From contig OX638337.1 in the NCBI GenBank assembly GCA_951812855.1, positions 960,108 through 1,024,107 on the forward strand: DNA of 64,000 nt, read 5' to 3'. The stretch comes from an uncultured Lentisphaeria bacterium (lineage in GTDB: Bacteria; Verrucomicrobiota; Lentisphaeria; JABSQK01; JAJFLO01). Position 1 is the first letter of the stretch, and each line of letters opens with the position of its first letter. The translations under genes were made by a program, and so were the position numbers. Below the pieces are notes generated by a model. It was not told where the DNA came from, did no database searches, and saw only the letters and a program-made list of their open reading frames with translations. Below are positions 28,698 through 47,078 of the stretch, piece after piece.

Positions 28698-30908
28698 ATG
28701 GATATTACACATTTACGTTTGGGAACTTTAGTCATCTCTGTATTTGTCGGGGTATGGCTTTTTATTGTTTCACACTATATCCGAATTCCTGCAATTGTTC
28801 TTTTACTGATTGGAGGCGTAATACTGGGGCCGGAGGGGTTGGCCATAATCGACCCTGAATCTCTTGGACAGAGTCTTCGGTTAATCATATCTCTGTGTGT
28901 TGCCATTATACTTTTTGAAGGAGGTTTATCCTTAAAGCCCGAGGGATTTAAGAAGGCACCAAGAGTTATTTGGAAGCTTTTAACAATCGGTGTCGGAATC
29001 ACCTGGCTTGGAACTGCTGCGTTAATTCATTTTCTTCTGAATTTTCCTATACCAGTCTCATTATTATGCGGCAGTCTGGTTATTGTTACGGGTCCAACAG
29101 TTATCGCGCCATTGCTTAATCGAATCAGTGTTAAGGATAAATTATATCACATCTTGCATTGGGAAGGTGTTTTAATTGATCCAATTGGTGTTTTTATTGC
29201 AATTTTGTGTTTCGAATGGTTAAGCATTGAGGGAAGTTTTATAACGCATATTGGACATTTAAGCTATCGCTTGTTAGTTGGCATTGTGATAGGTATCATT
29301 GGCGGTCTAATTTTAACGTTTTTACTGGTTAAAAAAATAATACCGGAACAACAAGTGAATATTTTGGTATTTGCCACAGCGTTATTTTTATTTGGTATCT
29401 CTGAATCAGTTGTTCACGAGGCCGGTATTCTTACCGTGGTTATAGCAGGACTTGTTATGGGCTGGACGTCTCCTCCGCAGCTTAAACATATCAAAAAATT
29501 TAAATCTGAGTTAACCGAAATTTCGATTGCACTGGTTTTCATACTTCTTGCCGCCAATCTTGAACTGCATCAATTTTCAAAATTCGGCTGGAGAGTTGTA
29601 TTGGTTATTTGTGGTGTGCTGTTTATTATTCGTCCACTTAGCATCATGCTGTGTACAAAAGGCTCTCAACTTAGGATGAATGAAAAATTGTTTCTGTCCT
29701 GGATTGCCCCAAGGGGGGTTGTCGCAGGGTCGATGGCGTCCCTCTTCGGGTTAAGGTTATCAATGCAAGGTCATCCAAACGCAATATTTTTGGAAACATT
29801 TACATTCAGTATCATCGCAACTACAATTGTTTTTCAAGGATTAACTGCTGGTATTGTGGCACACTGGTTAAAGGTTGAAGAACCCGAAAAGAAGGGATGG
29901 CTTATCATCGGTGCTCACCTTTTCTCAAGAAAAATTGCGTCGTTCATCATGGAAACGACCAATGGCGTATGTATTTTGATTGATACCAATGAAGATGCGG
30001 TCAGAGAGGCACAAAATGAGGGATTTATCGTGATCCAGGGCAATGCGTTGTCGACGGATATTCTTCCTCTTGATCAGATGTCTTCAATCGGCAATCTCCT
30101 CGCACTGACTGATAACCGGGATTTAAACCAGTTGATTTGCGAGAAATGGTCAGAGATGATTGACCGTAATCATTTATACAGGTGGTCGTCACGATCCATT
30201 CAGGATGAAAACGAAATTGGTGGAATGGGAAAGCCGTTATGGCCGATGATCCCAAAACCCTCTCAACTGTCATATGATTTAAAAAACATGAATGTCAATT
30301 GTCGGCAATTAAATGAAAACGAATCGTTTGTAAAGTCATCCGGAAATGAGAGGATGATAACCTTTACTGACAGCACACTTCATTTTTCAGACAGTGTTCC
30401 TGAAGGAGTTGAAGCACCTGATGTTTTTGTGTTGGAACGACTGTCGCTGAATTTACTTGGATTAATTAAACGTAATCAAATCTTTTTTCTTGACTATGAC
30501 GATTATGAAGAATTGTTAAATGTAATACTTAATGAAATTGAACAGATTTATCCGGATATTGTTAATGATGCACTCAAATCAAGTTTGGTGCATCGCGAAG
30601 TCAAATTTCCCTCAATACTGGCAAATAGAATTGCAGTACCGCACACCCGATCTTCCTCATTAAATGAGTCAATTTGTGTAGTTGTACAGTTAAAACAGGA
30701 GATAAATTTACCGCCGCCTAACGCCGGGACTGTCAGACTGTTATTTCTATTATTGACACCCGAAGATAAACCGGAACAACATTTAAGACTTCTTGCAGAA
30801 ATTGCCAAAATTGCATCGTCCCCGGACTTGGTTGATTCACTTATAAATGTGAATTCGATTGATGATTTAATACAAAATTTTAAGGGTATTAATGCAAAAA
30901 TCGAGTGA
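28698..30908 (+). CDS. NhaP/CPA1-type cation:proton antiporter with central RCK-like and C-terminal PTS EIIA (type 2, PtsN-like) domains
   Basis: 736-aa ORF; ~12 TM segments in first 400 aa, Rossmann-like middle region (…WLIIGAHLFSRKIASFIMETTNGVCILIDTNEDAV…), C-terminal EIIA-2 domain with AVPH active-site motif (…ILANRIAVPHTRSSSL…LLFLLLTPED…). Confidence 0.8.
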   Translation: MDITHLRLGTLVISVFVGVWLFIVSHYIRIPAIVLLLIGGVILGPEGLAIIDPESLGQSLRLIISLCVAIILFEGGLSLKPEGFKKAPRVIWKLLTIGVGITWLGTAALIHFLLNFPIPVSLLCGSLVIVTGPTVIAPLLNRISVKDKLYHILHWEGVLIDPIGVFIAILCFEWLSIEGSFITHIGHLSYRLLVGIVIGIIGGLILTFLLVKKIIPEQQVNILVFATALFLFGISESVVHEAGILTVVIAGLVMGWTSPPQLKHIKKFKSELTEISIALVFILLAANLELHQFSKFGWRVVLVICGVLFIIRPLSIMLCTKGSQLRMNEKLFLSWIAPRGVVAGSMASLFGLRLSMQGHPNAIFLETFTFSIIATTIVFQGLTAGIVAHWLKVEEPEKKGWLIIGAHLFSRKIASFIMETTNGVCILIDTNEDAVREAQNEGFIVIQGNALSTDILPLDQMSSIGNLLALTDNRDLNQLICEKWSEMIDRNHLYRWSSRSIQDENEIGGMGKPLWPMIPKPSQLSYDLKNMNVNCRQLNENESFVKSSGNERMITFTDSTLHFSDSVPEGVEAPDVFVLERLSLNLLGLIKRNQIFFLDYDDYEELLNVILNEIEQIYPDIVNDALKSSLVHREVKFPSILANRIAVPHTRSSSLNESICVVVQLKQEINLPPPNAGTVRLLFLLLTPEDKPEQHLRLLAEIAKIASSPDLVDSLINVNSIDDLIQNFKGINAKIE

Positions 30909-36690: not shown

Positions 36691-37449
36691 TTGAATCTGA
36701 ATCGTATGAAAAATTGGTACAAAGACGCCTTTACTGAAGATTATATTCATATTTATCAACACCGCAACCAAACAGAAGCGACAATTCTAATCGACCGGTT
36801 ATTGAAATTTTTGAATTTACCAGGCGATTCATTGTGTTTAGATTTATGCTGTGGATTTGGTCGTCATTTATCATATTTATTAGATCAGGGGATAAATACA
36901 TATGGATTAGATTTATCACAGCCACTACTGGAAAATGCGGTTGAAATAAGGCAATTATCCGGTCGTGTCATTCTTGGAGATATGAGACACATTCCCTTTA
37001 GTAAGTCATTTGATTTTGTTTTCTCCTTTTTCTCCAGTTTTGGTTATTTTCACAGGGATTCAGAAAATATACAAGTTTTACAGGAGATTAATCGAGTGTT
37101 AAAACCAAAGGGAAGATTCTTAATCGATTATCTTAATGCTGAGCATGTTAAAGATAATTTGAGAGAACATGACCTTCGTTGCTATGATAATTTTACTGTA
37201 AAGCAGAAGCGCTGGATAAATTCAGATTTAAATACGGTAGAAAAAGAGTTAATCATTGAAGATGTCAAGGGTGAACGATCTTATTTTGAGAGTGTTAAAC
37301 TCTATGATCTGGTAGATTTCAGGCAACTTTGTTCAGCCTCGAATTTGAAAATCACCCATGAATTTGGAGATGCCATTGGAAAACCGTTTGACATCGGATC
37401 AAGTCGTTTGATCATGGTGGGGGGAAAAATTGACAGTCACCTTTCATAA
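36691..37449 (+). CDS. Class I SAM-dependent methyltransferase (translationally coupled to bshC)
   Basis: 252-aa ORF; SAM-binding motif …LDLCCGFGRHLSYLL…GLDLS…; stop overlaps bshC start by 20 nt. Confidence 0.75.
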   Translation: MNLNRMKNWYKDAFTEDYIHIYQHRNQTEATILIDRLLKFLNLPGDSLCLDLCCGFGRHLSYLLDQGINTYGLDLSQPLLENAVEIRQLSGRVILGDMRHIPFSKSFDFVFSFFSSFGYFHRDSENIQVLQEINRVLKPKGRFLIDYLNAEHVKDNLREHDLRCYDNFTVKQKRWINSDLNTVEKELIIEDVKGERSYFESVKLYDLVDFRQLCSASNLKITHEFGDAIGKPFDIGSSRLIMVGGKIDSHLS

Positions 37450-38995
37450 TTTCAATTTGGTAGATGATAACCTTTATAATGCCAAAATAACGTCCGCTTT
37501 TCTGGAAACAGATCCTTATTCATCAGATTCATTGTCCAGGAATCATCAATACGCGTCATCACGGTCTGACATCGACCGCGAATTTTTGTCGGAGACTTTT
37601 TCTGAATATAATAATGTCATCGGTAATGACTCCACGGCACTTTATAATTGCAGTCGAATAAGAAATGCAGGTTCAATGGCAGTGGTTACAGGCCAGCAGG
37701 CCGGGATGCTGACCGGTCCATTATACACGATATATAAGATTATTACGGCTGTTAATTTTGCAAAGCATTGTGAACATAAGTTTAAGACACCTGTCATCCC
37801 GGTTTTTTGGAACGCAACCGAAGATCATGATTTAAGTGAAGTCGAATCATTTCATTATCCTGGCAAGAAGTGGTCTGCCACTTTTTCACAAAACGGAGTT
37901 GCAGCACAATTTTTAAACGTAAATCCGGCATGTTCGAATCTTGTTTACAATTTCCTGGATTCAATCTCAGAAATAAATCATAAAGATGAAATTACATCTA
38001 TACTGACAAATGAGTTTGAAAAATACGGAGAATTTTCATCGTCAGTGACAGCCCGGTTATTTAAGGGGACGGGTCTGGTCATTATTGAACCAAAATTATT
38101 GCGTAAAAAGTCAACTCCATTTTTTCAAAAGTGCATCAGCCATTGTCATGATATCAGAAATGGATTGGAGCAGGCCGGTGTTCTCTTACAGCAAAATAAA
38201 ATTAAGCCTGCATTTCAGGTGTCCGGGGATTCAACAGGACTTTTTTATATAACAGATGACGGGATTCGATATCAAATAAAAAATAGGAAAAATGACTTTT
38301 TTATTAATAACAAATGGGTTTCGGAATCTTCAGCGTTACAACTTATTGCCGAGTCTTCTTCAAATTTTTCTACCGGTGCATACCTGAGACCCGTTTTGCA
38401 GTCAAAAATTATTCCTGCTCTGGCATATATAGCAGGTCCAGCGGAATATAGGTATCATTTACAACTGAAAAATATATTTCACATGTTTGATGTTAAAATG
38501 CCTGTAATTCTACCCAGAAATCATGCAACCATTTTGACAAAAAAAGAATTGAAAGTTGCGAATAAACTGGGTTTGAAAATTCATGATTATTTTGAAGGTC
38601 CTCAAAAATTTTATCATCAGCACAAGTTATATAAAAAAGGAAGAGACAGTTTTAAGAATGCTGAACAGGCCTTGATAGACATCGCTGAGAATTTGGCTCA
38701 GGACATACCGGATTTAGTCAATGAGAATGTATTAAATCAGTTTAAATCAAACTTGGGTATTCAATTAGACAAACTTGAAAAACGCGTTGCGAAAGAAGTC
38801 TTGAGACGCGAGGGAATTGACAATGCCAGAATTGATCGGTTTTATAATTGTATTTTCCCGAAAAAATCTATGCAGGAACGATGGATTAATATCTTTTATT
38901 TTATTGAACAAAATGGTTTATCCATTATCAGTGATTTGTTGAAAATTATCGATCCTTTAGAACGGCGACATTATGTTGTTTATACAGACCATTAG
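37430..38995 (+). CDS. bshC: Bacillithiol biosynthesis cysteine-adding enzyme BshC
   Basis: 521-aa ORF; conserved BshC block …AVVTGQQAGMLTGPLYTIYKIITAVNFAK…PVIPVFWNATEDHDL… and …AYIAGPAEYRY…; followed by bshB and bshA. Confidence 0.8.
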   Translation: MTVTFHNFNLVDDNLYNAKITSAFLETDPYSSDSLSRNHQYASSRSDIDREFLSETFSEYNNVIGNDSTALYNCSRIRNAGSMAVVTGQQAGMLTGPLYTIYKIITAVNFAKHCEHKFKTPVIPVFWNATEDHDLSEVESFHYPGKKWSATFSQNGVAAQFLNVNPACSNLVYNFLDSISEINHKDEITSILTNEFEKYGEFSSSVTARLFKGTGLVIIEPKLLRKKSTPFFQKCISHCHDIRNGLEQAGVLLQQNKIKPAFQVSGDSTGLFYITDDGIRYQIKNRKNDFFINNKWVSESSALQLIAESSSNFSTGAYLRPVLQSKIIPALAYIAGPAEYRYHLQLKNIFHMFDVKMPVILPRNHATILTKKELKVANKLGLKIHDYFEGPQKFYHQHKLYKKGRDSFKNAEQALIDIAENLAQDIPDLVNENVLNQFKSNLGIQLDKLEKRVAKEVLRREGIDNARIDRFYNCIFPKKSMQERWINIFYFIEQNGLSIISDLLKIIDPLERRHYVVYTDH

Positions 38996-39080
38996 GTCCA
39001 TATCAGCAAATCATAGATTTAACGTTGTGAAGTCTGACTGAAATGAAGAATGTAATACAACCAGAAAGAGTTGATACATT

Positions 39081-39791
39081 ATGGAATTGGATTATTTATT
39101 CTTGGCGGCCCACCCTGATGACGCAGAGCTATATTGTGGGGGATCAATTATTAAATTCAGGGAGAATGGTTATAGAGTGGGTATCCTGGATTTTACCAGA
39201 GGTGAAGCGGCAACTTCGGGTACAGTGGAAGACCGTGATCGCGAAACATTAACATCAAATGCAGTCCTCCAGCCAGATGTCAGGCACAACCTTGGACTTG
39301 TTGACAGTGGGTTGAGGGATGACGGGAATACGAGAATTCTGGTTGTTAATTATATTCGCAAGTATAGAGTTAAAGTATTGATTGCACCTCATGGACCATG
39401 CAGACATCCTGACCATACTGCTGTATCGACGCTGGCGAAAAATGTTTTTTTCTTTTCAGGTGCGGGCAAGTTCCCGTCTGATCATGAACGCTGGCAACCG
39501 CTGCAGCTTATTTACCATATGGAATTCCAGGATGTAAGACCGTCGTTTGTCGTTGATATTTCAGAACAGTTTGAACGAAAGATAAAGACAATTGAAGCAT
39601 ATAGTACCCAGTTCTATACGGATAGTAATCAAAATGAAAAGACACTGATCGGTTCCCATCGTTTTCGAGAGTTGATGATATCTCGGTTTAAGTATTATGG
39701 AAATCTTATAAATTGTGATTATGGAGAACCCTATATTCTTGACGAAACTCTAAGAATAGATGATCCTTTAAAGAACAAATTGGAAGGATAG
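39081..39791 (+). CDS. bshB: N-acetylglucosaminyl-malate deacetylase BshB (LmbE/PIG-L family)
   Basis: 236-aa ORF; LmbE-type metal-binding motif …LFLAAHPDDAELYCGGSI… and …HPDHTAV…. Confidence 0.8.
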   Translation: MELDYLFLAAHPDDAELYCGGSIIKFRENGYRVGILDFTRGEAATSGTVEDRDRETLTSNAVLQPDVRHNLGLVDSGLRDDGNTRILVVNYIRKYRVKVLIAPHGPCRHPDHTAVSTLAKNVFFFSGAGKFPSDHERWQPLQLIYHMEFQDVRPSFVVDISEQFERKIKTIEAYSTQFYTDSNQNEKTLIGSHRFRELMISRFKYYGNLINCDYGEPYILDETLRIDDPLKNKLEG

Positions 39792-39800
39792 GGTGAACGC

Positions 39801-40916
39801 ATGAATATCGGTATTGTTTGTTATCCATCAATTGGCGGGTCGGGCCTGATTGCAACTGAACTTGGAGTTAACCTCGCGAAACTGGACCATCAAATACATT
39901 TTATTTCATACTCAGTACCGTTCAAACTGTCAGTTTTCGACCGGAATGTCAACTTTCACTCTGTTGATCCCATTAACTATCCCTTATTTAATCAAACGTT
40001 ATACACATTTTCACTGACCGCAAAAATTATTGATGTCGTCAGAGAATATAAACTCGATCTTGTCCATGCACATTATTCGATACCCCATTCGCTATGTGCA
40101 CATTTAGCCAGGGAAGTCAGCGGGTGTGATTTTAAAATTATTACAACATTGCATGGTACAGACGTAACAATTGTCGGCCAAAATAAACCCTTATTTTCTT
40201 TGAATAAATATGGGATAGAGCAAAGTGATATGGTGACAACTGTATCACAATTCCAGAAAGAACATACGAATCGGTATATTGGTATTGCCAATGAAATAGA
40301 GGTGATTTATAATTTTGTTGATGCGGATATCTTCAGACCTGTTCCAAAAGGAAAATGCAGGGAATCACTGGCCTCGCCCGATGAAAAAATAATCATGCAC
40401 ATTTCAAATTTTCGGTCGCCGAAAGATCCCGAAGGAGTCATTAATATATTTCATGAAGTTTTGAAAAAAATCGAAGCGAAACTTGTCTTGATTGGTGACG
40501 GTCCGGGAATCGGAGAAATTAAAACATTATGTAAAGAGTTTAAAATCTGTGATAATGTTTGTTTCCTGGGAAAAATCGACAATGTCGAAAATCTGATACC
40601 TATGGCTGATTGTATATTACAACCCAGTTTAAGAGAATCATTCGGAATGGGTTTATTAGAGGCAATGTCCTGTGAAGTTCCTACGGTCAGCAGTAATGTC
40701 GATGGAATTCCTGAAGTAGTCGTTGATGGAGAAACTGGACTCATGGCTAATCCGGGAGATTATAAGACATTATCTGAGCATGTTATTAAAATTTGTTCGT
40801 CGGTGGATTGGGCAAAAAAGATGGGGAAAAACGGACGTCGGGTTGCTATTGAAAGATTCAACAAAGACAAAATCATCAGTGAATACCTAAAGTGTTATGA
40901 AAATGTGTTGAGCTGA
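39801..40916 (+). CDS. bshA: N-acetyl-alpha-D-glucosaminyl L-malate synthase BshA (GT4 glycosyltransferase)
   Basis: 371-aa ORF; BshA-type N-terminus MNIGIVCYPSIGGSGLIATELGVNLAKLDHQIHFISYSVPFKL and GT4 C-terminal motif …ESFGMGLLEAMSCEVPTVSSNVDGIPEVV…. Confidence 0.85.
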   Translation: MNIGIVCYPSIGGSGLIATELGVNLAKLDHQIHFISYSVPFKLSVFDRNVNFHSVDPINYPLFNQTLYTFSLTAKIIDVVREYKLDLVHAHYSIPHSLCAHLAREVSGCDFKIITTLHGTDVTIVGQNKPLFSLNKYGIEQSDMVTTVSQFQKEHTNRYIGIANEIEVIYNFVDADIFRPVPKGKCRESLASPDEKIIMHISNFRSPKDPEGVINIFHEVLKKIEAKLVLIGDGPGIGEIKTLCKEFKICDNVCFLGKIDNVENLIPMADCILQPSLRESFGMGLLEAMSCEVPTVSSNVDGIPEVVVDGETGLMANPGDYKTLSEHVIKICSSVDWAKKMGKNGRRVAIERFNKDKIISEYLKCYENVLS

Positions 40917-41025
40917 ATATTATTTTTGATAAATTACTTGCGATTTGAATCACACAGTTCATGAATTTACTTAAACCATAATCACGAAATCGGTAACCTG
41001 AAATCAGGTTGATCCACTCGATTTT

Positions 41026-41343
41026 TCAGTTATGCCTGAACGTGAACATCGTATTATTTAGCACCTCTTTAATCGCAGATGCCGGTTTAGATAAATCAAT
41101 TGGTTTCATGACGCAGTCATATACACCCGCTTCCTTCGCTTTTTCAGGGCTGGTACTGCCACTGAAACCCGAAGCAAGTATAACGGGGATATTCGGATTA
41201 ATTTCCAGAATATGTTTGACCAGATCAGTTCCAGTCATTCCGGGCATTGTCTGGTCGGTAAAGATTAGATCAAATCGTTCTGAATTCGATTTAATTTTCC
41301 GAGAAGCAGAGATTATATTTTTATGTATTTGAGGGAATTTCCA
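41026..41343 (-). pseudogene. Response-regulator receiver domain remnant (C-terminal two-thirds only)
   Basis: Minus-strand frame reads (stop)…KIKSNSERFDLIFTDQTMPGMTGTDLVKHILEINPNIPVILASGF…AKEAGVYDCVMKPIDL…; contains phospho-acceptor Asp region and K of receiver fold but lacks the N-terminal acidic pocket and any start codon upstream. Confidence 0.5.
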
Positions 41344-41543
41344 TTATTTTTCGTCTATCAGTTCATATCTCAATCTAAATTGACAAAAAAAATTGGCTGT
41401 TGCTAATTTGAATTTAAGTATTAAAATTGGGTTATAATCAGGAGACAAATCAAAATGAGAGTTCCTGATGTCATAGTGAAACGATATAATCGGCTAAATT
41501 TTTTGCATTTTTCTGAAAAACACACAATCGATTAGGGAATATA

Positions 41544-42368
41544 ATGCCAAAACCATACATGTTAACAAATGATCAGAAAATGCAGTTTGCCGCAATTTAT
41601 GTCTTGGAATATATGATCAATAAACCGCATGAATTTCCATTATTTCTGGACAGGAATGATCAGGATCTTGAATCCATTCTTGAATGGCTTCTGATTAAAG
41701 AGATGGTCCAAATCAAAAAAAATGAATCCTATTCTCCAACTGACAAAGGGCGGGAGAGTTTGACAAAATTTATGAATCGGTACACAGAATTTTTAAATGT
41801 ATTTGATATATATTGTGCGGTTGATCTTAGCACCGGAGAATTTGCATTTGAGTCGTATTTCGATTTTGAAGACAAAGCATCCTGGGGAAAATATCTCCAT
41901 GAAGATCGATGGGAGGACCTGCGGGTTGCTGTAGCTGACTATAAGAAATTGAACCCGGTTGAAATTGTTTTTATGAGTTTTATAAGTGAAAATCGATTCG
42001 GCAGGGATAAAACCGGATGGCAATTTGATTTATTATTGGGAAGTGTATGGGATGAGATATTGGAAATTTGCAATACTGCAGTCCAATGGGATGAATTAGG
42101 GTTCGAAGATGAAGAAGGCGACGTTCCCGCTGAAGCGGTTATTGAAGATGTCATTGTCCAGGGAGCAGAACATATCCTTGCTCTCCAAAAGGAAGAGTTG
42201 AACTGTAATCCAAAATATTTTAGTGATTATGATGAAAATTTTACAACGTCATCGAATGGTGAACTGAATAAGGGTCGGGTTGTAATAAACGAATATTCCG
42301 TAGATTACTATGATCCTTATCTTGATCCGGGTTATGTCTCGCCAATATGGTTTGGATTTTGGTTTTAA
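41544..42368 (+). CDS. Hypothetical protein (possible N-terminal winged-helix region, acidic C-terminal half)
   Basis: 274-aa ORF, no recognised catalytic motif; first of three co-directional genes ending with pspA. Confidence 0.45.
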   Translation: MPKPYMLTNDQKMQFAAIYVLEYMINKPHEFPLFLDRNDQDLESILEWLLIKEMVQIKKNESYSPTDKGRESLTKFMNRYTEFLNVFDIYCAVDLSTGEFAFESYFDFEDKASWGKYLHEDRWEDLRVAVADYKKLNPVEIVFMSFISENRFGRDKTGWQFDLLLGSVWDEILEICNTAVQWDELGFEDEEGDVPAEAVIEDVIVQGAEHILALQKEELNCNPKYFSDYDENFTTSSNGELNKGRVVINEYSVDYYDPYLDPGYVSPIWFGFWF

Positions 42369-42547
42369 TCCCGCCTTGCGGGCTGTCCTGCTACACTCGG
42401 CTGCGGCGTTGATTGTAAAGACGAAGTTTCAAACAGCAGGATAATCAGTGACTGTTTTTTGTAATTTCGTTAAGAATTTCTATTTTGTTTAGATGAGACT
42501 ATATTTTTTGATCTTTTTCAAAAAATAACACTATATAAGGAGCTCTT

Positions 42548-42961
42548 ATGAGTATTAACGTTCAAATCAGGAAAGAGGAAGAACTCAGTCGATTCCTGGA
42601 GATTCATAATTTTCAGGTGGATGATTTAGACAATGGTGTCTATCGGGTTGTCAGAGAAACTGAGCTGCCGGTTTTTATAAAGGTATCGGAAGTGGCTGTT
42701 TATTTTGAGCTTGATCTGGGTAATATCACAGAACTGGCTGGTGAAGAGTTATACTTCAAATTATTAGATCTCAATACTGAAATATTGCCTGTCAGTTTTG
42801 GTATTAATAATTCAAATCCAGATGATCCCAGGCTTGTTCTCGTTGAAACTCGGGAACCATGTCACTTGAGTGACAATCAGTTACTCAGTGTATTTGATGC
42901 AATTGAATTAGCTGCAGATAAGGCTGAAAAGCTTCTCACTTCATGTATTAGTGAAGGTTAA
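42548..42961 (+). CDS. Hypothetical protein, YbjN-like (tentative)
   Basis: 137-aa ORF; size and alternating hydrophobic pattern compatible with YbjN/T3SS-chaperone-like fold; 33 bp upstream of pspA. Confidence 0.4.
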   Translation: MSINVQIRKEEELSRFLEIHNFQVDDLDNGVYRVVRETELPVFIKVSEVAVYFELDLGNITELAGEELYFKLLDLNTEILPVSFGINNSNPDDPRLVLVETREPCHLSDNQLLSVFDAIELAADKAEKLLTSCISEG

Positions 42962-42994
42962 AGTTCAATTAATTTTTAATAGAGGAGTCTGATT

Positions 42995-43684
42995 ATGAGT
43001 ATTTTTTCTCGCATTTTTAAGGTGGGACAAGCAACATTGAATAAATTGATTGATGGTCTGGAGGATCCAGAGAAAATGTTAGAACAGGCTGTCAGAGATA
43101 AAGCCCGGCAGATTCGTGAAGCAAAGAAAGCAATTCAGGAATGTATTGCAACAGAGCGACAGACCAGGGCTCAAATGGAAAAGGAAAAAACAGAAAAGTT
43201 TTCCTGGGAACAAAAAGCTGAGGCCGCATTGAAAGCAGGTCAGGAAGAACTCGCTGTAAAGGCATTGTCACGAGCCACTGAGCATGAACAAAAAGCTAAA
43301 TTGTTGGAATCCAACTGGCAGCAGCAAAAAAGCAGTGTTGACTCTCTTAAAAAAGATATCATGAAACTGGAAGATGAACTTGCTGAATTCAAGCGGAATA
43401 AAGATTTTATTGTCGCTCAAAGCAAAGCCGGGGATGTTAAAAAACAAATTTATGAAGCCAAAGCAAAAATCAGCAGTAAAGATACATCGGATGATCTTAT
43501 GGCTCGATTAAAGGCAAAGGCAGAGAGAACAACCCATGAAGCTGATGCTGCAGAGGAACTCGCTGAAACACTTGACGGCGGAGACAGTTTGGAGAAAGAG
43601 TTCAAAGATATTGGTGCTGCCGGTGTTGATGTTGACGTTCAGAATAAACTCAATGCTATGAAAGCAAAATTAGGGAATGCGTAA
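42995..43684 (+). CDS. pspA: PspA/IM30 (phage-shock protein A / Vipp1) family protein
   Basis: 229-aa ORF; PspA N-terminal signature MSIFSRIFKV…LIDGLEDPEKMLEQAVRD… and long coiled-coil. Confidence 0.85.
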   Translation: MSIFSRIFKVGQATLNKLIDGLEDPEKMLEQAVRDKARQIREAKKAIQECIATERQTRAQMEKEKTEKFSWEQKAEAALKAGQEELAVKALSRATEHEQKAKLLESNWQQQKSSVDSLKKDIMKLEDELAEFKRNKDFIVAQSKAGDVKKQIYEAKAKISSKDTSDDLMARLKAKAERTTHEADAAEELAETLDGGDSLEKEFKDIGAAGVDVDVQNKLNAMKAKLGNA

Positions 43685-43923
43685 CGGGCAGGAAGCTCAG
43701 TATTTTCACCGATTATATATACTCAAAGCCTTGCCGGCATAAAATAGGGTTACTTCATTATATAATGTGTGCAAAAATGGGACTGGAGCGATGAGTTCCA
43801 ATAAAACACTTTAATTTTGAGCAGTATTTAATGTGACTCCGCTGACCCCTGAACCCAAAGAACCCAGACGCTGTGAAGGGGGACACTCATTGATAATCGC
43901 AGCGTATTTGTTATCTAATTGGT

Positions 43924-44322
43924 ATGAATGATTCTATAGACTTAACTTCTCAAAATCCAACTTGCCCTTTAGGAAGACAGATACTGGTAGATTTATATGA
44001 TTGTGATACAGACTGTCTTAATCATGTCGAGGTAATAAAAACAATACTGATTGAGGTTGCTGATTCAATAAATACAAATGTTATTGATTCATCATTTCAT
44101 GAATTTTCACCCTGTGGTGTAAGTGGCGTACTTATTATTTCTGAAAGCCATATTGCTATTCATACATGGCCGGAACTCGGCTTTGCAGCGGTTGATGTAT
44201 TTACATGTGGAGATAGACTCAACCCTGATTTAATTCAATCTGAATTCGGTCGTCGGTTTGGAGCGAAGCGTTCCGAAAAGCAGATAATTTATCGTGGAAA
44301 TGAACGAATGAAACAGTCATAA
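43924..44322 (+). CDS. speH: S-adenosylmethionine decarboxylase proenzyme (small pyruvoyl-dependent class)
   Basis: 132-aa ORF; self-cleavage/pyruvoyl site motif …LIISESHIAIHTWPE…. Confidence 0.8.
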   Translation: MNDSIDLTSQNPTCPLGRQILVDLYDCDTDCLNHVEVIKTILIEVADSINTNVIDSSFHEFSPCGVSGVLIISESHIAIHTWPELGFAAVDVFTCGDRLNPDLIQSEFGRRFGAKRSEKQIIYRGNERMKQS

Positions 44323-44370
44323 ACTCTTCCCTGTGTTGTAGTGTGAATTTAATAATTTTCTGATATTACA

Positions 44371-45726
44371 ATGGTTAACGTCGATAAAATAACTAAATAT
44401 TGTTTAGGAAATTTCAGTAATTTAAAAAATCAGATGATTTCTCAGGATCATGCATCAGATTTTGAAATTGATTTTGAAATTACGTACATATTATTCCTGG
44501 CATCACATATTGATGGAGATCTTACGTATAGGGAAAATCAGTTTTCCGAAAGCGTTGGGGACTGTCTTGGCTGGTCTGAATTCTATGCGTCACTGCTGAC
44601 TTCCAGGGTACTTAAACAGCCATCATACCAAATAGAGCATTTAAAAATTGCTCATAAGCATAAGAAATTTGGTTATACGCTGTTTCATCTCGCCTATTGC
44701 ATGGTGCTTATTGACGGTGATTTAAATGTAGACGAGCGGGCGTTTATCGGCAACTTAAGAGATTCTCTTTTTGGAGATTCCAAAGAAATCTGTGAAGAAA
44801 TAGAACTGAATATCAATGATGTATTTGAGGGGAAAATGAACAGAGTTCCAACCGAATTTGATCTAAATGATTTCAGTGGTATTACAAACAGTGTTGATGA
44901 TGAAACGGTCAGTTTGAAAGAATGTATGGAGGAACTTGACAGTCTGGTTGGATTAGATCATGTCAAAGATGAAATAAAAAAATTAATCAGCTATTTGAAT
45001 ATTCAAAAAAAACGGCGTGAATTGGACTTGTCATGTACAAATTTATCGTTACACATGGTATTTACCGGAAACCCGGGCACAGGAAAAACAACCGTCGCAC
45101 GATTAATCGCTAAAATTTATAATGCATTGGGTTTTTTAGATAAAGGGCATTTAGTAGAAACTGATCGGAGCGGGCTTGTTGGGCAGTATGTTGGCCATAC
45201 TGAAATTAAGACATCTGAAGTGATAAACAAAGCACTTGACGGGATCCTGTTCATTGATGAAGCATACAGTTTGCATAAAGATTCAGAAAGTGATTTTGGT
45301 GAAGAGGCAATAGACACTCTGGTTAAAAGGTTGGAAGATCATCGTGACCGTTTAGTTGTCATTGCAGCTGGATATGAGGGGGAAATGCATGAGTTTATTG
45401 ACTCTAATCCAGGTATGCGGTCACGCTTTAACACCTATATAAATTTTTCAAATTATTCCTCAAAAGAATTGTTTGAGATATTCGAATTAATGAGTAAAGA
45501 AAATGATTATCTTCTTGATAAGAGTGCTGCCTCAAAGTTGTTACAAGTCTTTGAATCCAAAGTTGAAAATGCTGGAACAGGATTTGGTAATGGTCGATTC
45601 GCACGCAATTTATTTGAACAAATTCTGCGAAATCAGGCCCTTCGGCTGAGCGAAGTCAATAACCTTGCCAAAGAGGACTTGATTACAATTAAAGCCCAGG
45701 ATATACAATCTGCAGTTTTAGATTAA
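44371..45726 (+). CDS. AAA+ ATPase (CbbX/SpoVK-like) with N-terminal TerB-like tandem motifs
   Basis: 451-aa ORF; Walker A FTGNPGTGKTTVARLIA, Walker B ILFIDEAYSL; N-terminal repeats …HIDGDLTYRENQF… and …LIDGDLNVDERAFI… resembling TerB/DjlA-N type motifs. Confidence 0.75.
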   Translation: MVNVDKITKYCLGNFSNLKNQMISQDHASDFEIDFEITYILFLASHIDGDLTYRENQFSESVGDCLGWSEFYASLLTSRVLKQPSYQIEHLKIAHKHKKFGYTLFHLAYCMVLIDGDLNVDERAFIGNLRDSLFGDSKEICEEIELNINDVFEGKMNRVPTEFDLNDFSGITNSVDDETVSLKECMEELDSLVGLDHVKDEIKKLISYLNIQKKRRELDLSCTNLSLHMVFTGNPGTGKTTVARLIAKIYNALGFLDKGHLVETDRSGLVGQYVGHTEIKTSEVINKALDGILFIDEAYSLHKDSESDFGEEAIDTLVKRLEDHRDRLVVIAAGYEGEMHEFIDSNPGMRSRFNTYINFSNYSSKELFEIFELMSKENDYLLDKSAASKLLQVFESKVENAGTGFGNGRFARNLFEQILRNQALRLSEVNNLAKEDLITIKAQDIQSAVLD

Positions 45727-45815
45727 AAAGTACTTCCTTTAAACCCGTTGTGAGTCGTGATTTAGATAATACCATTCGTAACGGGTTAGATAAAGATTGA
45801 CAGTTTGAGGTTGAG

Positions 45816-47078
45816 TCAGAAAAAGCCTCTGACAGCATTGGCAAACCCTTCAATTTCCTGTTTCGTATGAACTGCTGATACAAAACATACTTCGAATTGC
45901 GAGGGTGGAATGTAATACCCTGCTGACAGCATGTAATGAAAGAATCTTGAATATTTCTCTGTATCACATTGTTTTGCGTCCTCTAAATCGGAAATTGAAT
46001 TTTCGTTGAAAAATAGTGTAAAGACACCATCTAAATGGGCCAGTGTACATAATCCATTTTTAAATTGTTCGGTACCCTCCAACCCCTCAAGGATTTGTGC
46101 ATTTTGTTTTATTCTGTCATATACGTTATGAGATTTGAGAATCTTTAATGTTGTTATACCGGCAGTAACAGCGATTGGATTGCCGCTCAGGGTTCCGGCT
46201 TGATAGACATTTCCTAACGGCGATAATTTGTCCATTATCTTACGTTGCCCACCCAATGCTCCTATTGGCAGCCCCCCGCCGATAATCTTGCCAAGACAGG
46301 TAATGTCTGGAGTTACATTACAAATCGTTCCGTATGTTGTTGGTCCAAATCGAAAACCTGTAATCACTTCATCAAAAATTAAAAGTGCACCATACTCTTC
46401 TGTTATTCGTCGTAATCCGGCTAAAAAGCCGTCTTCTGGTTTTACCAGTCCCATATTGCCGGCTACCGGCTCAATGATGATTGCGGCGATCTCGGAACCC
46501 CGGTTCTTAAAAATAGATTCAATGGCTTCGAGGTTATTGTAAGGTGCAGCAAAAGTATCTTTTATAATATTTTCAGAAATTCCCTCAGATAAATGGATTG
46601 CTCCGGTTAGTAAACCGCTTCCTCCTGATACAAGCAGTGAATCTGAATGGCCGTGGTAACATCCATCAAATTTAACTATTTTTGATCGATTTGTATATCC
46701 TTTAGCTAAGCGCAGTGCTGTCATTGTTGCTTCTGTCCCCGAATTTACTAAACGAACTTTTTCAAAATAAGGAATTTGCCGGCAAAGGAATTCGGCTAAT
46801 TCTATTTCTAATTCAGTGGTGGCTCCAAACGTCAGCCCGTTGTCGGCGGCAACTTTAACTGCATTGATTACTTCAGGGTGGGCATGTCCCAGAATCAGCG
46901 GGCCCCAGGATCCGCAGTAATCTGTTAACGTTTGGCCATCTGCAGTAATTAATTTGCTGCCGGACCCGCGTTCGATGTGAATGGGGATACCGCCGACTGC
47001 ATTCCACGCACGTACTGGACTGTTTACCCCTCCGGGAATTACTCTATTTGCCCGAATTGAAAGATTTTTTGATGTCAT
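45816..47078 (-). CDS. hemL: Glutamate-1-semialdehyde 2,1-aminomutase
   Basis: 420-aa ORF; class III aminotransferase motifs (…RVIPGGVNSPVRAW…, …LIFDEVITGFR…) and HemL-specific N-terminus. Confidence 0.9.
   Translation of the reverse strand: MTSKNLSIRANRVIPGGVNSPVRAWNAVGGIPIHIERGSGSKLITADGQTLTDYCGSWGPLILGHAHPEVINAVKVAADNGLTFGATTELEIELAEFLCRQIPYFEKVRLVNSGTEATMTALRLAKGYTNRSKIVKFDGCYHGHSDSLLVSGGSGLLTGAIHLSEGISENIIKDTFAAPYNNLEAIESIFKNRGSEIAAIIIEPVAGNMGLVKPEDGFLAGLRRITEEYGALLIFDEVITGFRFGPTTYGTICNVTPDITCLGKIIGGGLPIGALGGQRKIMDKLSPLGNVYQAGTLSGNPIAVTAGITTLKILKSHNVYDRIKQNAQILEGLEGTEQFKNGLCTLAHLDGVFTLFFNENSISDLEDAKQCDTEKYSRFFHYMLSAGYYIPPSQFEVCFVSAVHTKQEIEGFANAVRGFF

Follow-up and report, generated by a model that had tools for sequence, protein, structure and literature searches.

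A CesT/Tir–PspA gene module with a conserved acidic two-domain protein in an uncultured Lentisphaeria bacterium

This study concerns the genes around pspA in a 64,000-nucleotide stretch of DNA (contig OX638337.1; hereafter the window) from an uncultured Lentisphaeria bacterium. A first-pass annotation, made from the sequence alone, had drawn attention to two uncharacterised genes that precede pspA in the same orientation, and all three open reading frames (ORFs) were found to be intact and located on the plus strand. The product of the first, a protein of 274 amino acids (aa), is called X274 here. The module in the window is composed only of X274, a CesT-like protein, PspA, SpeD, and an AAA+ ATPase, arranged as follows:

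41544 to 42368, plus strand: X274, 274 aa, intact ORF, cytoplasmic and very acidic
42369 to 42547: spacer of 179 bp between the X274 and CesT-like genes, a site occupied by a K+ channel/RCK gene in most relatives
42548 to 42961, plus strand: CesT-like protein, 137 aa, CesT/Tir chaperone superfamily (CesT_Tir_1 type), the upstream half of a CesT/Tir–PspA dyad
42995 to 43684, plus strand: PspA/IM30, 229 aa, bacterial ESCRT-III-type membrane-remodelling protein (PF04012)
43924 to 44322, plus strand: SpeD, class 1b pyruvoyl S-adenosylmethionine decarboxylase homolog (PF02675, TIGR03330)
44371 to 45726, plus strand: AAA+ ATPase, 451 aa, with AAA and AAA_lid_6 in its C-terminal part

The gap between the CesT-like gene and pspA measures 33 bp, and the one between pspA and the SpeD gene 239 bp.

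Proteins encoded with PspA

The PspA protein matches PF04012 over nearly the full profile (E 1.1e-40, 140 bits against a cut-off of 33.9, profile positions 1–217 of 220) and aligns end to end (residues 1–225) with solved Vipp1/PspA chains (E 5e-20). Since it scores below the cut-offs of both the E. coli-type equivalog TIGR02977 (79.7 bits versus 242.95) and LiaH (67.2 versus 380), it is considered a member of the family but an ortholog of neither E. coli PspA nor LiaH. It is 20% identical to E. coli YjfJ.

The 137-aa protein had been described as YbjN-like, which holds at the superfamily level only, as its profile is that of CesT_Tir_1 (PF22550). The match of the window protein is borderline (E 5.2e-6, 26.9 bits versus a cut-off of 27.0, profile positions 6–119 of 131), and Pfam CesT is matched at E 7e-4. 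Among aligned homologs, CesT_Tir_1 was recovered in 39 of 39 (E <= 0.01) and CesT in 34 of 39, and many homologs carry a precomputed PF22550 annotation. The YbjN family itself (PF10722) was matched neither by the window protein at E <= 0.1 nor by the 39 homologs at E <= 0.01. Judged by these profiles, the protein belongs to the CesT/Tir superfamily and is of the CesT_Tir_1 type. YbjN and CesT share a clan. The 622 database homologs found at E <= 1e-3 come from many phyla, with identities of 50–88% (typically 50–65%), and bear source names such as “CesT family type III secretion system chaperone” and “YjfI (DUF2170 family)”; one is named “Sensory transduction regulator” in UniRef, which we take to be the description of the YbjN family. 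Orthology with DUF2170/YjfI (PF09938) was rejected, with weak matches in 3 of the 39 homologs (best E 0.0019) and a probability of 0.3% when the family profile was compared with E. coli YjfI by hhalign. No solved chain was matched by the protein or by its family profile. Membership of the type III chaperone class is not indicated, because type III secretion system genes were found neither in the surveyed part of the window (28.7–49.9 kb) nor among the genes that are conserved across the loci described below, and the context is PspA. The pair of CesT/Tir-superfamily protein and PspA is a dyad that forms the core of a conserved neighbourhood class (Ravi et al. 2024, mSystems, PMC11237479).

SpeD matches PF02675 with E 4e-35 and TIGR03330 with 128 bits (cut-off 75.65). 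These profiles identify it as an S-adenosylmethionine (AdoMet) decarboxylase homolog. Its gene is linked to the dyad, and variants of the dyad neighbourhood are reported to carry AdoMet decarboxylase (PMC11237479).

The 451-aa protein contains AAA (E 2.3e-19) and AAA_lid_6 (E 2.4e-18), its CbbX/SpoVK/EccA-type part extends approximately over residues 180–447, and it matches the CbbX structures 3zuh/3syk with E 2e-61. It remained below the cut-offs of the three equivalog models spore_V_K, EccA, and CbbX (the scores being 313.7 versus 422.95, 275.7 versus 466.65, and 256.1 versus 459.25), and the profile scores place it in the CbbX/SpoVK/EccA clade as an ortholog of none of the three. Its N-terminal 190 aa had no Pfam match. 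Two similar “h-IDGDL-x3-E” segments, ASHIDGDLTYRE and MVLIDGDLNVDE, lie within the N-terminal ~175 residues (44371–44900), and they may resemble TerB-like domains.

Conserved linkage to pspA and the operon in relatives

Linkage was examined in two sets of loci. The X274-seeded set was obtained by scanning with an X274 alignment, one genome per species, and comprised 80 loci, with counts given over the informative ones; the CesT-seeded set comprised 80 metagenome loci and was independent of the first. Most of the X274 loci are bins of metagenome-assembled genomes (MAGs), and the phyla named here are labels of contigs. In the X274-seeded set, pspA was found no more than 5 kb downstream of X274 and in the same orientation in 55 of 57 loci, and the CesT-like gene in 54 of 57. 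The genes for SpeD (37/49, also downstream of pspA) and the AAA+ ATPase (34/49) follow less often. Upstream of X274, a lipoprotein gene was detected in 53 of 55 loci, and both a protein with two DUF350 domains and eight transmembrane helices (8TM) and a fusion of seven transmembrane helices (7TM) with Spermine_synth in 47 of 55. A K+ channel with RCK domains is encoded directly after X274 in 50 of 68. Approached from the other side, in the CesT-seeded set, pspA lies within 1.5 kb after the CesT-like gene in 56 of 57 loci, and X274 upstream of it in 17 of the 20 with enough flank. The co-occurrence with pspA is conserved in both directions, and among database homologs many members of the X274 and CesT-like families sit on the same contigs.

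The four membrane-protein genes emerged from clustering all ORFs of the X274-seeded loci, and the consensus operon in relatives is 7TM–spermidine synthase (SpdSyn) fusion, lipoprotein, DUF350, X274, K+ channel, CesT-like protein, PspA, SpeD, and AAA+ ATPase. Median identities to the window proteins are 62% for PspA, 56% for the CesT-like protein, 52% for X274, 45% for the AAA+ ATPase, and 43.5% for SpeD. This operon type, with the five genes of the window linked on one strand, occurs under more than 10 phylum-level labels. Verrucomicrobiota, Calditrichota, and Thermodesulfobacteriota make up most of them and come from marine and sediment samples. Other labels of X274 loci are KSB1, Myxococcota, Nitrospinia, Planctomycetes, Spirochaetota, Acidobacteriota, Gemmatimonadota, Bacteroidota, Chitinivibrionales, and Cloacimonadota.

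These data indicate, with high confidence, that the association of X274 and the CesT-like gene with pspA is conserved and that both belong to its module. The module proposed by the first-pass annotation thus stands for both proteins, but it is larger than described, including also SpeD, the AAA+ ATPase, and, in relatives, the four membrane-protein genes. The contrary view, that both merely neighbour pspA, each with a function and a promoter of its own, has some observations on its side that weigh against a common module: the 179-bp and 239-bp gaps are long enough for separate promoters in the window, X274 stands without PspA nearby in one locus (L046), and in another (L027) it accompanies membrane-protein genes only. 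However, with reciprocal same-strand linkage in more than 50 loci under many phylum-level labels, and with gaps of 3–73 nt between X274 and its neighbours in most relatives, this view has a negligible probability.

The non-coding sequence gave few regulatory signals. A consensus scan for promoters and terminators returned fewer promoter-like sites than in shuffled sequences and no terminator in the gaps, the consensus being uninformative for a verrucomicrobial genome. The long gaps folded no better than shuffles (z -1.0 for the X274/CesT-like spacer, -0.4 and -0.1 for the others), and the idea of a riboswitch or leader RNA was rejected, as an Rfam search of 40800–46000 gave no match at E <= 1. 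In a three-way footprint (window, L001, and L083), only the ribosome-binding site and start were conserved.

Distant CesT-like proteins of approximately 30% identity (L163–L165) are encoded adjacent to a downstream pspA gene without X274, which fits a dyad that is the ancient core and X274 as a clade-specific addition. The same operon, of bacterial type and with X274 54–62% identical, was also found on contigs labelled “Promethearchaeota archaeon” (L041) and “Actinomycetota bacterium” (L002), which could reflect mis-binning or horizontal transfer.

The nearest relative in the genome collection is the Verrucomicrobia MAG L001, with an X274 81% identical. Nucleotide synteny between both stops exactly at the X274 stop codon, after which L001 (8826–10028) continues with the K+ channel gene. 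Because most relatives carry the channel gene at this site, it is taken to have been lost or relocated in the window lineage. The 7TM/major facilitator superfamily (MFS)–spermidine-synthase-like fusion, DUF350, and lipoprotein genes of relatives are likewise absent from the 64-kb window; tblastn with five sets of operon membrane proteins found none of them there, nor any K+ channel remnant. Since X274 stays with CesT-like protein, PspA, SpeD, and AAA+ ATPase while the membrane-protein genes are absent from the 64 kb, it is regarded as part of a cytoplasmic core.

The neighbouring features with a bearing on the region are:

37430 to 40916, plus strand: bshC-bshB-bshA, complete bacillithiol biosynthesis set, directly upstream of the module region
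41086 to 41292, minus strand: hybrid kinase remnant of 207 bp, between the bsh genes and X274 (ORF 41026 to 41247)
28698 to 30908, plus strand: protein of 736 aa in which the transmembrane domain of a Na+/H+ exchanger is fused to TrkA_N and phosphotransferase system (PTS) EIIA-2

The flanks farther out consist of housekeeping genes (hemL, Ham1, lptB/A/C, UbiA, peptidyl-prolyl isomerase, and the Na+/H+ exchanger fusion). A methyltransferase ORF (36691–37449) runs 20 nt into the start of bshC. The kinase remnant matches the REC C-terminus of a 539-aa HisKA-HATPase-REC hybrid kinase (78% nucleotide identity, 80% aa identity over 74 aa), whose gene is intact in L001 and has lost approximately 1.95 kb in the window lineage. 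A 107-aa ORF on the plus strand (41009–41332), which lies across the remnant in antisense, is unlikely to be genuine. The kinase remnant and the absence of the channel gene suggest ongoing gene loss in this 1.94-Mb genome. A defence-system or phage origin was dismissed, with PADLOC matches at chance level only and no PHROG match.

The X274 family and the interpretation of the module

X274 has no Pfam or NCBIfam family assignment. Its 602 database homologs at E <= 1e-3 come from many phyla and are 50–88% identical (typically 50–65%); together with those of the CesT-like protein, they mark both as genuine genes rather than chance ORFs. When 1.84 billion representative proteins were searched with the X274 profile, 303 clusters were recovered; among the 150 matches listed, lengths ranged from 95 to 335 aa and no additional domain was seen. 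The database entry for X274 (P0001) has 269 aa and begins at Met6 (41559). The 274-aa start at 41544 is favoured because the ATG context ATGCCAAAACCATA and the MPKPY beginning, with its near-invariant Tyr5, are kept in two relatives.

A confident AlphaFold2 model built with 72 sequences (pLDDT, the predicted local distance difference test, 86.7; pTM, the predicted template modelling score, 0.85) shows disorder confined to residues 222–242. The predicted layout is a MarR/PadR-like winged helix (approximately residues 9–91), an alpha/beta domain (approximately 92–220), the acidic disordered linker (222–242), and a Tyr/Trp-rich tail. The possible winged-helix N-terminus noted in the first-pass annotation is therefore recovered as a fold in the model, and the acidic C-terminal half with Tyr-rich segments is as it had described, with a net charge of -21 for residues 92–220 and a pI of 4.29. 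Residues D88, D94, R127, K134, E140, E149, R151, W159, Q160, F161, D162, W169, and C176 are invariant. Foldseek with the model gave no match at E < 0.1, a profile search of PDB sequences no match, and the C-terminal domain of approximately 130 residues had no match among solved PDB structures. Shorter forms of approximately 210–220 aa, without the acidic linker and the Tyr/Trp-rich tail, occur in lineages labelled Thermodesulfobacteriota or, for L041, Promethearchaeota (L041, L042, L059, P0260, P0289, P0294, and P0298), and the conserved core is therefore placed at residues 1–215. Homology with YjfK/DUF2491 was rejected (0.2% hhalign probability between E. coli YjfK and the X274 profile). A Tyr-Ser-Pro-Trp motif common to the X274 tail and the operon lipoprotein was also dropped, as it is present in 3 of 47 lipoproteins only. 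X274 and the CbbX-type AAA+ ATPase were not found described for this operon in the text or supplement of PMC11237479, and X274 apparently represents an undescribed, widespread, and highly conserved two-domain family; for its larger domain, and in all for two thirds of the protein, no structural relative is known.

Regarding function, X274 may act as a sensor or adaptor through protein contacts, a role that we favour tentatively, at somewhat below an even chance, over that of a classical repressor. It is favoured because the winged helix is acidic, conservation is on a par with PspA and the CesT-like protein, X274 is kept in the cytoplasmic core, and no conserved operator was found. Conservation in the module is highest in X274, the CesT-like protein, and PspA, above the enzymes SpeD and AAA+ ATPase, which fits X274 being a subunit of a complex.

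Some findings weigh against this role, most of them in support of X274 being a MarR/PadR-type one-component transcription factor, whose dimer would repress or activate the operon while the C-terminal domain binds an effector (a polyamine, decarboxylated S-adenosylmethionine (dcSAM), or another metabolite). The predicted structure has a MarR/PadR-type winged-helix fold in which the long helix after the wing resembles the C-terminal dimerisation helix of these proteins, and structural comparison of the N-terminal domain gives DNA-binding regulators (MarR, PadR, and DtxR) for every one of the best matches. Sub-threshold HTH_45 matches (E <= 1) were obtained in 14 of 72 homologs, and JGI names some homologs “PadR family”. 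Related operon types have a dedicated regulator, such as the ribbon-helix-helix (RHH) protein of the Shewanella type, and PadR-like winged helix-turn-helix proteins are recurrent partners of phage shock protein (PSP) systems (PMC11237479). As no further regulator gene is present in the operon of the window, one would ordinarily expect an autoregulator. In addition, the charge argument against DNA reading rests on a predicted model, and the operator search was weak: Gibbs sampling of heterogeneous upstream regions gave an information content of 6.9 versus 5.6–6.3 in shuffles, and a short or non-palindromic site could escape it.

Nevertheless, a transcription factor, although a serious rival, is considered the less likely role. 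The helix before the wing (residues 37–51), which would be the recognition helix, has four positions (D39, D41, E43, and E47) with an acidic residue in 93% or more of the 72 homologs; helix and wing together have a median net charge of -5, with a range of -9 to -2 across all 72, and residues 1–91 a median of -4. The site of the first helix of a helix-turn-helix (HTH), residues 27–36, has no helix according to DSSP of the model. No Pfam DNA-binding family was matched at threshold, with PadR and MarR absent at E <= 0.1 for the window protein and at E <= 1 among the 72 homologs. Conservation of approximately 52% across phyla exceeds that of the operon enzymes and is judged atypical for one-component regulators. 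Upstream of the operon, Gibbs sampling of 40 dereplicated regions found no conserved palindromic operator (information content 6.9 and 7.5 versus 5.6–6.8 in shuffles, at scattered positions), and enriched k-mers were discounted since they came from closely related loci.

It could also be proposed that the C-terminal domain of X274 takes part in aminopropyl/polyamine chemistry as an enzyme, carrier, acceptor (for instance, modified at K134), or polycation buffer. Such a role would fit the invariant charged and aromatic residues, the very high conservation, and the net charge of approximately -30, given that SpeD and a spermidine-synthase-like enzyme are at the centre of the operon; moreover, the membrane SpdSyn-like fusion reportedly has no known natural acceptor. 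However, X274 has no structural or sequence likeness to any enzyme or binding-protein fold, the window keeps it without a SpdSyn-like enzyme nearby, and it is unlike YjfK/DUF2491, the protein described as “predicted enzymatic” in the operon of the E. coli type. The probability of this explanation is accordingly rated as low.

Returning to the sensor/adaptor role, the region as a whole may be read as the cytoplasmic core of a PspA membrane-maintenance module, a reduced form of the CesT/Tir–PspA and polyamine class; in our judgement the chances for this complete reading are evenly balanced. A part in membrane stress is inferred from PspA. Under such a mechanism, PspA would polymerise on damaged membrane, and a dimer of the CesT-like protein would bind PspA, either restraining it or preserving its competence for assembly, in the manner of type III chaperones and their clients. 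Remodelling of the PspA polymers, a Vps4-like role, could fall to the CbbX-type AAA+ ATPase. SpeD would feed dcSAM to a membrane aminopropyltransferase-like enzyme encoded elsewhere or lost in this genome; a point that weighs against this step is that SpeD homologs can be neofunctionalised (PMC10407285). The acidic, aromatic-rich C-terminal domain of X274 would sense a cationic signal (a polyamine, an aminopropylated product, or K+), and its acidic winged helix may contact a protein partner (PspA, the CesT-like protein, or the AAA+ ATPase) rather than DNA.

The triggering and reversal of PspA/Vipp1 assembly are known mainly from the E. coli PspF/B/C circuit, which, to our knowledge, most bacteria lack. 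The operon couples PspA with a chaperone-like protein, an AAA+ ATPase, an AdoMet decarboxylase, and a membrane aminopropyltransferase-like enzyme, and, if X274 were a sensor or adaptor, it would offer a tangible way into the connection proposed to exist between polyamine chemistry and the repair of membranes. The window offers a minimal five-gene set for reconstitution. If X274 proved to be merely the operon repressor, the result would be a useful annotation and little more.

Comparison with known PspA systems

Compared with the PspF-PspABCDE system of E. coli, the module shares the PspA/IM30 effector, but no match to a PspB, PspC, or PspF model was found among the module proteins and the scanned immediate neighbours. 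The sigma-54 motif TGGC-N8-TGC was found neither upstream of the first operon gene (62 loci) nor in positions 40900–46000 of the window, and PspA falls far below the E. coli PspA equivalog cut-off. The first-pass annotation had noted that X274 and the 137-aa protein do not resemble the E. coli pspBCDE partners, and in agreement with this neither matches any Psp partner model in Pfam or NCBIfam. It had further suggested an alternative membrane-stress module; an alternative to pspABCDE is borne out, but not as something new in kind, given the published CesT/Tir–PspA dyad, and the part in membrane stress is putative.

X274 also departs from MarR/PadR regulators, including the HAAS–PadR-like PSP pairs, by its lack of family membership, its acidic equivalent of the recognition helix, and the unpredicted first HTH helix, and by the fusion of the fold to a domain of approximately 130 residues without structural relative.

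In systems of endosomal sorting complexes required for transport (ESCRT), of the ESCRT-III/Vps4/ESCRT-II/CdvA type of archaea and eukaryotes, a likeness exists by analogy only, in that the gene for an ESCRT-III-family polymer (PspA) is accompanied by genes for an AAA+ ATPase and a winged-helix protein that is not basic. The subunits of ESCRT-II have winged-helix folds and bind ESCRT-III. Unlike Vps4, the AAA+ ATPase in this study is of the CbbX/SpoVK type and not of the Vps4/MIT type. By this analogy, X274 might be a bacterial counterpart of ESCRT winged-helix adaptors (ESCRT-II/CdvA-like), acidic and not binding DNA, that senses a cationic membrane or polyamine signal by means of a domain not seen before and nucleates or gates the assembly of PspA; the CesT-like protein would serve as holdase and the AAA+ ATPase as Vps4-like disassembly motor. 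This is a long shot, although, if true, it would describe a complete, self-contained ESCRT-like machine in bacteria.

A further example of the dyad is the bac cluster of P. aeruginosa, in which a small CesT/Tir-fold protein is likewise encoded directly upstream of a PspA homolog (PMC10948618). BacA is a dimeric, DUF2170/CesT-like protein proposed as a chaperone or regulator, and BacB is the PspA (PMC10948618). The cluster differs in that BacA is a DUF2170 member and in its other operon partners, with no X274, SpeD, or AAA+ ATPase.

The greatest similarity is with the dyad operons of Ravi et al. Two of their groups are relevant: that of Shewanella SO_3765, which adds a 7TM-spermine-synthase-like protein, YjfL/DUF350, the Ctha_1186 lipoprotein, DUF4178, and RHH, and that of Alteromonas AVL56_13815 and E. 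coli yjfIJKLMC, which adds a K+ channel, DUF2491, DUF350, DUF1190, and an ATP-grasp ligase (PMC11237479). As in these operons, a CesT/Tir-superfamily gene lies immediately upstream of pspA in the window, the E. coli counterpart being yjfI-yjfJ, and relatives of the window have the 7TM+Spermine_synth protein, the 8TM DUF350 protein (YjfL), a lipoprotein with a low-complexity tail, the RCK K+ channel, and AdoMet decarboxylase. In contrast, the chaperone here is of the CesT_Tir_1 type and not DUF2170/YjfI; DUF4178, RHH, DUF2491, DUF1190, and the ATP-grasp ligase were undetected in the scanned conserved cluster genes. X274 and the CbbX-type AAA+ ATPase are present instead, and the 64-kb window is devoid of the membrane-protein genes. 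The terms winged (in this context), SpoVK, CbbX, TerB, and Verrucomicrobia are absent for this operon from the text of PMC11237479. The operon thus mixes elements of the published groups, and it belongs to a known kind of system of which it is apparently a new variant.

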